Shown: positions 9,845 to 41,398, counted from the first letter of the stretch. The stretch: 64,000 nucleotides of DNA from a virus (IMGVR_UViG_3300031857_000001), one strand, 5' to 3'. Translations and numbers: made by a program. Notes: generated from the letters alone by a model not told the origin.

Positions 9845-10366
9845 ATGGAATGGTACATTGTAAGAGCACAAGCAAATCGTGAGAGAAAAGTCTCAGAAAG
9901 AATTTTAAAAGAAGCGGACAAAGGGGAACTCAATGGAGTAATCGGAAGAGTTGTGGTTCCAATGGAAAAGGTTTTCGCAACAAAAGATGGTAAAAAAACA
10001 CAACGAGAAAAAGTTCTATTTCCTGGTTACGTTTTTGTTGAAACATCTGCAATTGGAGAATTAAAACAAGTTGTTAAAAAAATTGACGGAGCGACAGGTT
10101 TGTTGTCTGATAGAGCTGGAAATATTCAAATCGTATCAGACCAAGAAGTAAACCGAATGATTGGTCTACACGAGGAAAACAAAACAAAAAGTTTTTCAGA
10201 CATATTCAGTGTTGGAGATGAAGTTACCGTAACTGAAGGTCCGTTCACATCCTTTAAGGGGAACATTGAATTTATTGATAAAGAAAAAGGTAAACTTAAA
10301 GTAAATGTTCTTATATTTGGCAGACCAACATCTGTTGAATTAGAGGACACCCAAGTAAGAAAATGA
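9845..10366 (+). CDS. nusG: Transcription termination/antitermination factor NusG
   Basis: WYIVRAQANRERKV, EKVLFPGYVFVE and KOW GDEVTVTEGPFTSFKG...LKVNVLIFGRPTSVEL. Confidence 0.95.
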   Translation: MEWYIVRAQANRERKVSERILKEADKGELNGVIGRVVVPMEKVFATKDGKKTQREKVLFPGYVFVETSAIGELKQVVKKIDGATGLLSDRAGNIQIVSDQEVNRMIGLHEENKTKSFSDIFSVGDEVTVTEGPFTSFKGNIEFIDKEKGKLKVNVLIFGRPTSVELEDTQVRK

Positions 10367-11052
10367 AAATAACACTCATCAGCGATACTCATAACAAACA
10401 CAAACAGGTAACAAGTTCTTTACCTGGCGGTGATTTATTGATTCATGCTGGTGATATATCATCAAGGGGTTATAAGCATGAAATCCAAGAATTCTGTAAG
10501 TGGTTTAACAGTTTGGATAATTATACTGTAAAGGTATTCATCGCTGGAAACCACGACTTTGGATTTCAAACAGAACCTAAAATGGCGAAAGAGATTGTTG
10601 GTTCCTACAAGTGGATTGATTATCTCCAAGATAATTTTTTGGGTTACGGAGTTGATACTGAAAATTATGTAAAAATTTATGGTAGTCCTTGGCAACCTGA
10701 ATTTAATGGTTGGGCGTTTAACCTACCAAAAGATGGGTGGGAACTTAAACAAGCTTGGGATGAAATACCGGATGATATTGATATACTTGTAACTCACGGG
10801 CCAGCATTTGGTTATTTGGATACAATTATGGGTCAGTATGATAATCTTGGATGTGAATTACTGACAAAGAGAATTAAAACAATTAAACCCAAAATTCATG
10901 TCTGCGGACATATACATTCGGGGTATGGTTATGTTTTTGATGGTGATACTCACTTCATTAATGCTTCCGTTTTAGATGAACAGTATCAATACACCCAAAA
11001 ACCACTAACAGTAGAATGGGACCCTGTAACGAATAAGTTGGAGTTTATTTAA
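10363..11052 (+). CDS. Calcineurin-like metallophosphoesterase (MPPED-like)
   Basis: ISDTH, HAGD, IAGNHD, THGP and CGHIH motifs. Confidence 0.93.
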   Translation: MKITLISDTHNKHKQVTSSLPGGDLLIHAGDISSRGYKHEIQEFCKWFNSLDNYTVKVFIAGNHDFGFQTEPKMAKEIVGSYKWIDYLQDNFLGYGVDTENYVKIYGSPWQPEFNGWAFNLPKDGWELKQAWDEIPDDIDILVTHGPAFGYLDTIMGQYDNLGCELLTKRIKTIKPKIHVCGHIHSGYGYVFDGDTHFINASVLDEQYQYTQKPLTVEWDPVTNKLEFI

Positions 11053-11056
11053 TTTG

Positions 11057-11084
11057 AAACCCGTCGAATTTGGCGGGTTTTTTT
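11057..11084 (+). terminator. Intrinsic terminator
   Basis: AAACCCGTC-GAATTT-GGCGGGTTT followed by a T-run. Confidence 0.75.
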
Positions 11085-11147
11085 ATTGGGGTAAAATTAT
11101 AGTAAATCGAAAAATTTTATCAAGAGTTTAATGATATTTATCAGAGT

Positions 11148-12740
11148 ATGGATAGAAAAATCAAAATACTCATTTCGTTGTCATTCGTCATAATGTTGGT
11201 GTTCTTCGTCGTTAAAACTGCGGTTTTAGTTGAACTTACCCCAAGCACAAGATTAACAAGAGGAACAGAATATGTTTGTTTTTTATTCTTTATCCCCGTT
11301 TTTTTCAGTTTGATTAGACACTACATTAAAACTAGTAGATTATATAATAAATTTAAAGAATTTGAGAAGTTTGTTGACACATCTGTATTAGTTAGTAAAG
11401 CCGATAAGAATGGTAAGATAACATATGTTAACAAAAAATTCAGTGAAGTATCTGGATGGAGCTTAGAAGAGGCCATTGGAAAAGACCACAAAATAGTTAA
11501 TTCAGGGTACCACCCCAAAGAGATGTGGCAAGAAATGTATAAAACCACAATCGTAGATAAACAAATTTGGAATAAAGTTGTAACCAATATTTCAAAAGAC
11601 GGACATTTATATTGGGTTGATTCATATATTAAAGCCGAGTTCAGAGGAAATGGAGAACTAAAAGGATTTACATCATTAAGGTATGATGTCTCAGATGTTA
11701 AGAAAAAAGAACTTGAGATTAGAAATAGAATGAATGCTATTAACCAATCCAATGCAGTTATTGAGTTTGATTTAACCGGTACTATAATGTATGCTAACAA
11801 AAATTTCTGTGATGTTATGGGATATGATATGGAAGAAATTACAGGAAAACACCACAGAATATTTTTAACTGAGGATTATTCAAATTCAGTTGAATACAAA
11901 GAATTTTGGGATAAGTTAAAGGGTGGTAATTTCATATCTGCTCAATTTACAAGGATTAAAAAGAATGGGGATGAAATTTGGTTACAAGCCACATATAACC
12001 CAATCTTTGATAATGATAATAAAGTTATCAGAATTATGAAAATAGCGATTGATATTACTGATAAAGTTTTACAATCCCAAGAGATAGAGAAGAAAAACAC
12101 TTATCTGGAACATGCTGCCAAGATATTAAGACACGATATGCACTCAGGTATTAACACTTATATGCCAAGAGGTTTAAGTTCTTTGGAAAGAAGATTGAAA
12201 GTTGAAGATATTGAAAATTTGAAAATCGAGGCTCCGATTAAAATGATTAAGGAGGGTTTAAGACACTCACAAAAGGTTTATAAAGGAGTTTATGAATTTA
12301 CAAATTTGGTTAAAAAAGATGTGGTGTTAAATAAAGCTGAATGTGATTTAAGAGAGATACTAAATGATTACTTATCATCAACGGCTTATCATAGTCAGGT
12401 TATAATTGAAGAGTTACCAACCATAGAAGTTAATGAAGCGTTGTTCTGTACGGCGATAGACAACTTAATTAGAAATGGATTGAAGTATAATGACTCAGAA
12501 TCAAAATTTGTAAAAATATATATGGAAGGTGATAACCTTATAGTCCAAGATAATGGAAGAGGTATTGACCAAGAAGATTTTGACCATTTATCAAAACCAT
12601 ATACAAGAAAAGAAGGACAAAAAGAATCAGGAACCGGACTCGGATTAAACATATGTGTTGCAATATTGCAAGAGCACAAGTTTTTGGTAAGATGTGAGAA
12701 AAATGAGATAGGAACTAAACTGAAAATAAAAATAAAATAA
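11148..12740 (+). CDS. Membrane PAS-PAS sensor histidine kinase
   Basis: Two N-terminal TM segments and two PAS/PAC domains. H-box ILRHDMH, N-box NLIRNGLKY, G1 QDNGRG and G2 GTGLGL. Confidence 0.93.
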   Translation: MDRKIKILISLSFVIMLVFFVVKTAVLVELTPSTRLTRGTEYVCFLFFIPVFFSLIRHYIKTSRLYNKFKEFEKFVDTSVLVSKADKNGKITYVNKKFSEVSGWSLEEAIGKDHKIVNSGYHPKEMWQEMYKTTIVDKQIWNKVVTNISKDGHLYWVDSYIKAEFRGNGELKGFTSLRYDVSDVKKKELEIRNRMNAINQSNAVIEFDLTGTIMYANKNFCDVMGYDMEEITGKHHRIFLTEDYSNSVEYKEFWDKLKGGNFISAQFTRIKKNGDEIWLQATYNPIFDNDNKVIRIMKIAIDITDKVLQSQEIEKKNTYLEHAAKILRHDMHSGINTYMPRGLSSLERRLKVEDIENLKIEAPIKMIKEGLRHSQKVYKGVYEFTNLVKKDVVLNKAECDLREILNDYLSSTAYHSQVIIEELPTIEVNEALFCTAIDNLIRNGLKYNDSESKFVKIYMEGDNLIVQDNGRGIDQEDFDHLSKPYTRKEGQKESGTGLGLNICVAILQEHKFLVRCEKNEIGTKLKIKIK

Positions 12741-39963: not shown

Positions 39964-40062
39964 TTAAACATTCGTATATTTGTAAAAAGTATGACTCTAT
40001 GTCATACTTTTTTTTTGTTTTTGATATTTATCTTAATATAATAACTGACTTAATAAAAACTG

Positions 40063-40398
40063 ATGATGGAGCAACACTTGGTTACAATTCTCGTTACACT
40101 AATAACGGTTTTAACTTCAAACGCGGCTTGGAAATATTATGAGAAAAGAATGTTGTTGAAGCAAAGGCAAGAAGAGAATCAACACAAAGATGGGGAACTT
40201 TATAGAGATGATTTAAGAGAAAGAATTGTTAAATTAGAAACATTACTTGACGAATCATCCAAAGAAAAAGATAAGATGAGAGAAAACATCATCGTATTAA
40301 CCACTTCACTCTCAAGATTAGAAGTCGAGGTGGATTTCTTAAGAAAAGAAAATGAAAAGTTGAGAGCAGAAAATCAACTTTTAAGAACTAGAGTATAA
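40063..40398 (+). CDS. N-terminal TM + coiled-coil protein
   Basis: Hydrophobic N-terminus and leucine heptads. Overlaps the M23 gene start. Confidence 0.75.
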   Translation: MMEQHLVTILVTLITVLTSNAAWKYYEKRMLLKQRQEENQHKDGELYRDDLRERIVKLETLLDESSKEKDKMRENIIVLTTSLSRLEVEVDFLRKENEKLRAENQLLRTRV

Positions 40399-41114
40399 TG
40401 ACAAATTTTTCTTACATAACAAATACCTCTAAAGGTAGAATAACATCCCCTTTTGGTAATAGGGTACATCCTACATTAGGTAAGGTCAAAAAACATTCAG
40501 GATTAGATATTGCTCACCCCACAGGAACTGAAGTACTAGCAATGACCGACGGAGTTGTCATTCAAAGTGAAATGGCAAATAACGCTTGCGGTGGTACCAT
40601 TGCAATAGACCACGGAATGGTTGATGGAAAAAAGCTTAAAACCAGATTTTGTCATAATAGTAAATTACTTAAAAAAGTAGGGGATAATGTTAAAAAGGGT
40701 GAGGTAATTGCGATTTCTGGAGGTGGTAAAAATGATGTTGGTAGAGGTCGTTCGACAGGCCCCCATATTCATTTTGAGGTATATGAAAACGGACAAACAG
40801 TAAATCCAAAACCATATTATGATGGCTCAAAATTAGGAGTGACACCCGATAGTGAAAATACGACTGATTCAGATACTACTAAAGTTTCAGGTAAAGAAGA
40901 TTTACCGACACCTGATGAGGATGACGAACAACAAATGAGTCCTGAGTTATCTAATGCTCTAAAAACTTTAACTCCGGACTCTAAAGGTCTTGATGTGTTT
41001 GGTGGAAAATTGGACCCTTTAATGAAAGGGTTTGAAAAGGCGTTTGGTCAATTTGGTATGAATTCTATCGTTAAAGAAGATGTTGATAGAATTAAAAATT
41101 TGATGAATCTGTAA
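40398..41114 (+). CDS. M23 family peptidase (peptidoglycan endopeptidase)
   Basis: ITSPFG.R, HSGLDI and STGPHIHFEV. Confidence 0.92.
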   Translation: MTNFSYITNTSKGRITSPFGNRVHPTLGKVKKHSGLDIAHPTGTEVLAMTDGVVIQSEMANNACGGTIAIDHGMVDGKKLKTRFCHNSKLLKKVGDNVKKGEVIAISGGGKNDVGRGRSTGPHIHFEVYENGQTVNPKPYYDGSKLGVTPDSENTTDSDTTKVSGKEDLPTPDEDDEQQMSPELSNALKTLTPDSKGLDVFGGKLDPLMKGFEKAFGQFGMNSIVKEDVDRIKNLMNL

Positions 41115-41153
41115 TTTTTTTACGATTTTGCTTGTTTGGTGAGTATTTATCCT

Positions 41154-41398
41154 TATCTTTGTAAAAGATTTGACACCTACAGGTGATGAAAGATACTCGG
41201 AAAGTTAAATCTAAAAAAAAACTACAAATAAATTTGGTGAAATGAAAAAGTCACCATATATTTGTAAAGGATTTGAGACGGACAACGATTAAGATACAAG
41301 TCTCGAATCTTAAAAAAAGTTTAAGAAAAATTGGAAGATTGAAAAATTTGACTTAAATTTGTAAAACAATTCGGGAATGACCGAAAAGTTCTTTGAAA
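41154..41398 (+). promoter_or_regulatory. Three tandem TAnnTTTG promoters plus boxA (rrn-like leader)
   Basis: TATCTTTG at 41154, TATATTTG at 41257, TAAATTTG at 41354 and AAGTTCTTTGAAA at 41386-41398. Confidence 0.7.

Follow-up and report, generated by a model that had tools for sequence, protein, structure and literature searches.

The DNA analysed here, hereafter the window, is a stretch of 64,000 nucleotides (nt) corresponding to bases 240417-304416 of the virus record IMGVR_UViG_3300031857_000001 of IMG/VR, a genome of 321,403 base pairs (bp) with direct terminal repeats and a GC content of 32.7%. It carries four RNA loci headed by a short element with the sequence of boxA, a signal of ribosomal RNA (rRNA) operons (rrn), together with a gene coding for a NusG protein. 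BoxA nucleates complexes of NusB, NusE, NusA, NusG as well as SuhB that block Rho on untranslated RNA, and it also acts outside rRNA (PMC5725501, PMC4807359, PMC10250234). The promoter type of the phage units and the similarities of its NusG agree with a host of the Bacteroidota.

BoxA copies and the RNA loci behind them

The first unit encodes tRNA-Leu(UAA) and tRNA-Met(CAU) (33043..33208, plus strand; ARAGORN and Rfam tRNA). Its predicted -7 promoter box TATATTTG (33018..33025) matches TAnnTTTG, the Bacteroidota type, which also lies 10-12 nt before host tRNA genes, and ends 5 nt before the G of boxA copy 1, GTTATTTGAAA (33031..33041), which is separated from tRNA-Leu by 1 nt. The second unit, also on the plus strand, has an identical TAnnTTTG match TATATTTG (36721..36728) placed 5 nt before boxA copy 2, GTTCTTTGAAA (36734..36744; genome motif scan). 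It is followed by an RNA of ~370 nt without credible open reading frame (ORF), at 36745..37119, and by tRNA-Glu (37120-37192), tRNA-Ile (37610-37684) and tRNA-Cys (38259-38330), all detected by ARAGORN. From CGTATATTTG through boxA, a cassette of 26 nt is nearly identical at 36718-36744 and 33016-33041. The third plus-strand unit is the GOLLD RNA (41400..42190), composed of a variable 5' domain and a 3' domain modelled by Rfam (RF02032, 41796-42189, 298.3 bits for a gathering score of 150). Its nearest -7 box, TAAATTTG (41354..41361), is kept in the related phages G001, G003, G004 and G005 and ends 26 nt before the G of boxA copy 3, GTTCTTTGAAA (41388..41398; same scan). A boxB-like hairpin, TTCGG-gaatga-CCGAA (41370..41385), is found between this promoter and boxA, and a further TATATTTG box lies upstream (41257-41264). 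The fourth unit is on the minus strand and codes for a transfer-messenger RNA (tmRNA) (43769..44146; RF00023, 90.3 bits for a gathering score of 47), ending with a hairpin terminator (43732-43755). Its TAnnTTTG match TATCTTTG (44167..44174) precedes by 6 nt boxA copy 4, GTTATTTGAAA (44150..44160), which lies 3 nt before the tmRNA 5' GGGGG. The two natural RNA forms of the phage boxA are GUUCUUUGAAA and GUUAUUUGAAA, two of the copies having A, not C, at position 4.

A preliminary description of the window had listed three 13-mers at 33029, 36732 and 41386 (plus strand) as boxA elements heading RNA loci. Their positions are exact in the sequence, as is their spacing to the -7 boxes (3 nt before the initial AAG at 33029 and 36732, ~25 nt at 41386), and the loci downstream are real: tRNA-Leu/Met, an ORF-poor stretch of ~370 nt preceding tRNA-Glu, and the "800-nt RNA", which is GOLLD. 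The minus-strand copy before the tmRNA gene was missing from that list, and the boxA-headed RNA loci are four rather than three. Shuffles of the window lead to an expectation of 0.02 copies of the 13-mer, and none out of 100 shuffles reached three. The core common to the motif is the 11-mer GTT[A/C]TTTGAAA, of which a genome-wide scan found five copies in the 321,403 bp, base composition giving an estimate of ~1.4 per genome. Four of them come within 30 nt past a TAnnTTTG box and stand immediately ahead of an RNA gene. The fifth, at genome position 92259, is neither preceded by a promoter box nor followed by an Rfam RNA. TAnnTTTG boxes number 585 on both strands and their 30-nt downstream windows cover ~2.7% of the sequence, from which the chance of finding four of five copies there is calculated to be ~3e-6. 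The preliminary description had not noticed the element before protein genes. In a genome scan tolerating up to two mismatches, no copy follows a TAnnTTTG box ahead of a coding sequence (CDS).

Expression of these loci was assessed by comparing window positions 32800-44400 with metatranscriptome contigs of four freshwater/riverine studies. GOLLD is covered from ~41425 to 42188 in the four independent studies with word depths of hundreds to thousands. The 370-nt RNA is matched without mismatch by RNA contigs at 36763-37002 and 36883-37022, and the tmRNA by a contig spanning 43802-44094, also with 0 mismatches, both at low depth. Almost no contig covers the protein-coding DNA between the RNA loci. 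This shows that the RNAs are real and abundant; the contig cover is silent on their starts, their ends and antitermination. Cover of the 370-nt RNA as a whole falls within 36763-37095. No Rfam family matches this RNA at E<=1, and folded as a single sequence it gives a z-score (-1.72) that is not significant by itself. The many sequence variants and joints of GOLLD in the contigs suggest the presence of several co-occurring relatives.

Two other RNA units of the window have a promoter and no boxA after it. The first (29527..29840, plus strand) encodes a tRNA-Arg with a group I intron behind a TATATTTG promoter (29527-29534). The near-copy GTTATTTGGAAA occurs at 29513-29524, upstream of this promoter, and in G001/G004 (L027/L035 position 1501) an exact GTTATTTGAAA comes just before the TATATTTG promoter that leads the tRNA-Arg with intron. 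The boxA-like word may double there as the -33 region (TTG) or serve read-through transcripts. The second unit (43083..43327, plus strand) sits between GOLLD and tmRNA. It has a TATATTTG promoter (43083-43090), a tRNA-like RNA (43124-43196) that scores 35 bits with the Rfam tRNA model and is not called by ARAGORN, and then ~110 nt more up to a strong terminator (43308-43327).

Leaders of related phages and of bacterial stable RNA genes

Five longer related IMG/VR records were retrieved by their NusG, which is 98, 87, 87, 77 and 77% identical to the protein of the window, and two uncultured phages of 635-642 kb were reached independently of NusG through DNA similarity of the GOLLD leader. In the five related records the motif is again positioned after -7 boxes and before tmRNA, tRNA clusters and GOLLD. 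The 11-mer is intact in relatives whereas the spacers and the downstream sequence differ, and the arrangement is kept in phages whose NusG proteins are 98, 87, 77 and 46% identical, with divergent flanks, which directly establishes its conservation among phages. The tmRNA module is kept in G001/G004, and two other IMG/VR contigs (L648, L685) have the succession of -7 box, GTTATTTGAAA and tmRNA module. A scan of IMG/VR contigs with the promoter-adjacent pattern returned 117 matches, 12 with a full TAnnTTTG box and two with tmRNA modules, and is too noisy for a census. A start resembling that of the 370-nt RNA (..aaag.g....ggcaga..) follows boxA in G002/G003 (L024/L025).

The hairpin preceding boxA shows compensatory variants in relatives, TTCGG/CCGAA, TTCGGA/TCCGAA and TTCAGT/ACTGAA, with GAGTTAC/GTAACTC and AACCA/TGGTT in LR745206. 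These leader hairpins are individually not significant (z -0.6 to -2.0), and their support comes from positional conservation and compensatory changes. The 635-kb phage LR745206 has one leader with promoter, hairpin and GTTCTTTGAAT ahead of a tRNA, and another where a tRNA is followed by a hairpin and GTTCTTTGAAA ahead of GOLLD, without a promoter of its own. The distance from promoter to boxA is thus variable: 5-6 nt, 26 nt with an intervening hairpin, or past a tRNA in LR745206. This variability argues for an element of the RNA over an element of promoter DNA. A block of ~40 nt upstream of GOLLD (41230-41268; TTTGGTG..AATGAAAAAGTCACC..TATATTTGTAA) is nearly identical in LR745206, with at least two occurrences before tRNA genes (L434 1512-1552 and 1716-1755), and looks like a shared strong promoter cassette for stable RNA.

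Leaders of 34 16S loci were pulled from 121 genomes of the Bacteroidota, obtained via pattern matches. Nearly all of them have GTTCTTTGA(A/T)(A/G), or a variant proper to the lineage, 80-150 nt before the 16S 5' end, and in nine the word is exactly GTTCTTTGAAA; Flavobacterium-type genomes have GTTCATTGACA or GTTCATAGACA, and the form with A at position 4 was not seen in any of the 34. Several host leaders display the order -7 box, short hairpin, boxA (e.g., L174, L163), L174 having TATATTTG, a CCCCAC/GTGGG hairpin and then GTTCTTTGAAA. From the nearest -7 box to the boxA of these rrn leaders the distance is 20-60 nt or more, and this boxA is followed after 2-4 nt by a GTGTG-like boxC, of which the phage copies have no clear equivalent. 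The phage boxB-like hairpin is present at GOLLD and in the tRNA-cluster leaders of relatives, and absent at the promoter-adjacent copies. Position in the rrn leader and the published gamma-proteobacterial consensus GYTCTTTAANA (PMC5725501) identify the element as the Bacteroidota boxA. The phage motif, for which a comparison with host rrn leaders had been advised, is therefore the boxA of the host phylum by sequence and position.

The same element is associated with tmRNA genes (ssrA). About half of 30 Bacteroidota tmRNA loci have a boxA-like word directly before the mature tmRNA 5' end, and the phage element is identical in sequence to elements of both rrn and ssrA leaders of the host phylum. 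The leader L194 reads TATATTTG, act, GTTCTTTGAAT, taat, GGGGG, and L211 and L221 have GTTCATTGAC / GTTCATTGACG before tmRNA, the same kind of variant as in Flavobacterium-type rrn leaders. In G013, G018 and G086, for which both loci were sampled, the words agree, with GTTCTTTGAT or GTTCTTTGAA before tmRNA and GTTCTTTGATG before 16S. The ssrA variant tracks the rrn boxA variant of the lineage. BoxA is common ahead of ssrA genes, at 0-6 nt from the mature 5' GGGG and in many cases straight after the promoter (L193-L222; L315-L430). A collection-wide search for GTTCTTTGAA, 3-6 nt and GGGGGTG gave 120 matches, 27 of which are tmRNA genes confirmed by ARAGORN; the form with A at position 4 is much rarer (3/121 matches, one of them in a Bacteroidetes metagenome-assembled genome (MAG)). 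BoxA-led tmRNA genes were found in Caldisericia, Patescibacteria, Rhodothermales, Acidobacteriota, Balneolales, Planctomycetia, Bdellovibrio relatives, Verrucomicrobia, Ignavibacteriota and Bacteroidota, our tally being at least ten phyla besides Bacteroidota. Because ssrA genes of many phyla have the element, the phage tmRNA module looks host-like.

No boxA was detected in the leaders of 23 first-of-cluster tRNA genes from two Bacteroidota genomes, where the -7 box lies 10-12 nt before the tRNA, so that its placement before phage tRNAs is the work of the phage. An exception is a Bacteroidales MAG (L082) with boxA ahead of a tRNA-Thr cluster. BoxA before tRNAs, GOLLD and the 370-nt RNA is an arrangement of the phage. 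An exact-pattern census in four host genomes found rrn and tmRNA contexts only, besides chance matches and a CRISPR-like array. The broad scan of bacterial genomes with TTTG-N4-8-AGTTCTTTGAAA, from which the Bacteroidota genomes were obtained, gave mostly chance matches in coding DNA and a few leads, namely L082 and contig-end matches typical of rrn. The 30 loci sampled from a phylum-wide scan with TTTG-N4-7-GTTCTTTGAW all appear to be chance matches in CDSs, uninformative on host tRNA leaders. Two CRISPR-like arrays (G075:C61:4777-7203 and G011:C25:49002-49484), with a period of 75-77 bp and copy numbers of 33 and at least 7, have GTTCTTTGAAT or GTTCTTTGAT within the repeat; they are probably CRISPR arrays with a boxA-like word by happenstance.

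The phage NusG

The gene at 9845..10366 (plus strand) codes for a 173-residue protein with NGN and KOW domains (Pfam NusG, 6e-19, and KOW). That the window encodes a full NusG, as had been stated, is borne out by the score of 142.2 bits with TIGR00922 (cut-off 135.7); the models of specialised paralogues stay below their cut-offs (LoaP 107 for 125, UpxY 70 for 100, RfaH 32 for 124-144). The protein aligns end to end with Escherichia coli NusG, and its KOW domain retains the segments GPFxxFxG and IFGR, which contact S10 and Rho. In this it resembles housekeeping NusG and the phage proteins already annotated as NusG (nusG of Microcystis phage MaAM05, gp582 of phage G, the LR7565xx series), all two-domain NGN-KOW proteins with the KOW contact motifs. 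It differs from the housekeeping proteins in being only 32-42% identical to Bacteroidota NusG and in lacking the NusG-SP signature. The NusG of two huge phages are 57% and 46% identical, and a search of bacterial genomes with the phage NusG found no close relative. Credible phage NusG genes in INPHARED occur only in jumbo/huge phages: the LR7565xx series, MaAM05 and Bacillus phage G. To our knowledge, no function has been assigned to any phage NusG, and our search of the accessible literature on phage NusG retrieved nothing relevant.

This is the sole NusG of the phage genome, which has no gene for NusB or S10, so that recognition of boxA would fall to host factors. In the window the nusG operon is led by an ordinary TATATTTG promoter that no boxA accompanies. 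In G002/G003, the relatives with 77% NusG identity, an exact GTTCTTTGAAA stands 16 nt ahead of the first ATG in a compact run of seven genes that share one direction and end with nusG. This copy (L034/L033 position 1501-1511; L449) is preceded by a CCTTT/AAAGG hairpin and is not kept in the window; boxA-mediated control of the phage NusG operon could operate in these two phages. NusG co-occurs with boxA-led RNA loci in the seven phage records examined (7/7), five of which were found through NusG itself. This co-occurrence is weak evidence, and the sole tie between NusG and boxA. A specific role of phage NusG in the Nus complex, which the preliminary description had envisaged as a possibility, is a tentative proposal that we regard as rather unlikely.

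Putative role of boxA in the synthesis of phage RNAs

We privilege the reading that the phage element is a working rrn-type boxA that acts on nascent RNA, where the host Nus complex would protect untranslated phage RNAs from Rho; we consider this reasonably likely. Host RNA polymerase with sigma-A would start at the TAnnTTTG promoters and boxA would emerge at or near the transcript 5' end, at GOLLD after the small boxB-like hairpin. The phage boxA probably recruits the host antitermination machinery: host NusB-S10 would bind boxA and NusA, NusG and SuhB would join to form a termination-resistant polymerase complex. The same complex would assist RNA folding, as on rRNA and apparently on tmRNA leaders. 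It may hold the RNA 5' end near the polymerase and aid folding over long range, and this would be fitting for GOLLD and the 370-nt RNA. Long structured untranslated RNAs, such as GOLLD, the 370-nt RNA and the tRNA/tmRNA units, would in this manner be made full-length, in very large amounts and uncut by Rho. The binding of Nus factors, the antitermination or chaperoning activity and any participation of phage NusG are inferred; the high abundance of GOLLD is compatible with antitermination, but not diagnostic of it.

The original proposal that the phage disguises its non-coding RNA operons as rRNA operons stands in part: the motif is the rrn boxA of the host phylum, it is specific to RNA loci and conserved, and the GOLLD leader has the hairpin in the rrn order. 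The disguise is not strictly that of rRNA, since ssrA genes carry the same element. The pattern would rather correspond to a general stable-RNA signal that the phage extended to tRNAs, GOLLD and the 370-nt RNA.

Several observations weigh against the action of a Nus complex at these sites. For three of the four boxA-headed units the element would take up positions +1 to about +12, the start possibly falling at or within its first bases, and we are aware of no tested case of a boxA that opens a transcript. Two copies have A at position 4, a form rare before bacterial tmRNA, as seen above, and this position matters in E. coli, as judged from the C4T/T6C mutant (PMC5725501). With units as short as tRNA-Leu/Met and tmRNA, it is not evident why antitermination would be needed. 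Promoters without boxA lead two RNA units of the window (the intron-containing tRNA-Arg, 29558, and the tRNA-like RNA, 43124), and the GOLLD of LR756502 has no recognisable boxA. The boxA leader, lastly, is not visibly covered by the metatranscriptome contigs, which cannot show 5' ends.

BoxA could instead be the passenger of a captured host promoter cassette for stable RNA, of ssrA or rrn type, adding little beyond a strong promoter. The leader of the phage tmRNA, with its succession of -7 box, 6 nt, boxA, 3 nt and GGGGG, indeed resembles in layout host ssrA leaders such as L194, L211 and L221, the cassettes at 33016-33041 and 36718-36744 are near-identical over 26 nt, and the promoter block 41230-41268 recurs in LR745206. 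Simple carriage of the word fits poorly with an 11-mer that stays intact amid changing spacers and flanks in relatives down to 46% NusG identity, and that can lie apart from any promoter, either 26 nt further on with a hairpin between or, in LR745206, past a tRNA; moreover, host tRNA promoters, the natural source of a tRNA cassette, have no boxA. We regard this origin as improbable. Much the same displacement speaks against a promoter-proximal element acting as DNA, whether an early-transcribed stretch, a discriminator-like one or a factor site, that would tune initiation at stable-RNA promoters, for instance for growth-rate control. Three of the four units do have the motif beginning only 5-6 nt past the -7 box, across the expected start site, and the spacing at host ssrA promoters is equally tight. 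However, host rrn leaders have the same sequence 20-60 nt or more past the nearest -7 box, and an element working at fixed distance would not move behind a hairpin at GOLLD and after a tRNA in LR745206, which renders such a function quite improbable.

The A/U-rich leader could also be a site recognised or cut in 5' maturation, either an RNase P leader or a site of RNase E/G type. The motif stops 1-3 nt short of mature tRNA-Leu and tmRNA, as it does in host ssrA, and the start of abundant GOLLD contigs downstream of the motif gives a weak hint in this direction. The location of the motif ~100 nt from the 16S 5' end in rrn leaders, typical host tRNA leaders that manage without it, and a sequence that is the known Nus-binding consensus make a processing signal very unlikely. 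Recurrence of an AT-rich word by chance in an AT-rich genome finds some basis in the low GC content, in the ~1.4 copies expected from composition and in a reversed-pattern control that turns up about as often as the motif in certain relatives (e.g., four versus five in G002). It would have to account for 13-mers of which shuffles predict 0.02 in the window, for four of five copies sharing one promoter-RNA context, and for the return of the arrangement at orthologous places in other phages. Its probability is close to nil, and positional statistics together with conservation led us to reject it.

The boxA element, Nus-factor antitermination, phage nut sites and the presence of boxA outside rRNA are already known. 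With the boxB-boxA-boxC leader of rrn and its rrnTAC complex (NusA, NusB, NusE/S10, NusG, SuhB, S4) the phage loci share the 11-mer, a predicted sigma-A-type promoter upstream, a long untranslated RNA downstream and, at GOLLD, the order of hairpin and boxA. They differ in heading tRNA, tmRNA, GOLLD and 370-nt RNA genes rather than rRNA, in a boxA that would stand at the very start of the transcript in three units, and in the lack of an evident boxC and the A at position 4 of two copies. The nut sites of lambdoid phages (boxA and boxB, with N) are likewise phage boxA RNA elements that use host Nus factors to obtain a termination-resistant polymerase. The hairpin is here 5' of boxA and none follows it, unlike the lambda arrangement, a protein like N not having been searched for; the elements also head RNA genes instead of early protein operons, in phages of Bacteroidota. 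Stringer et al. (eLife 2020) reportedly described boxA upstream of CRISPR arrays. The suhB, S10 and CRISPR array cases have in common with the phage loci a control of Rho on non-rRNA transcripts, including untranslated arrays, but are chromosomal. BoxA in suhB, S10 and other leaders was studied at chromosomal bacterial loci, with non-coding RNAs explicitly left aside (PMC5725501). In the searchable literature we found neither an rrn-type boxA heading phage non-coding RNA genes, nor a link of GOLLD with boxA, nor boxA before bacterial ssrA genes, which is not proof that these are unpublished.

An extended scheme would have Bacteroidota jumbo phages run their own rRNA-type machine for antitermination and chaperoning. 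Phage NusG would replace or supplement host NusG at boxA-marked polymerases and be needed to transcribe the 800-nt GOLLD cage RNA and other phage RNAs, folding them during synthesis, at very high yield, and the Nus complex would also act on tmRNA genes across many bacterial phyla, so far an unreported class of targets. We consider this whole scheme unlikely.

GOLLD, like the ornate phage RNAs related to it, assembles into large cages. We know of no account of how GOLLD-type RNAs reach such amounts, nor of what the cages do, and the conserved boxA of GOLLD leaders offers a concrete, mutable handle on their biogenesis. The arrangement suggests that non-lambdoid phages draw on the Nus factors of their host with no N protein involved, although no search for an N-like protein was made here. 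The phage-encoded NusG gains a testable candidate role. If true, the boxA of tmRNA genes would add a universal stable RNA to the targets of Nus factors, which comprise rRNA, a few mRNAs and CRISPR arrays, and this side result may outweigh the phage finding in importance.

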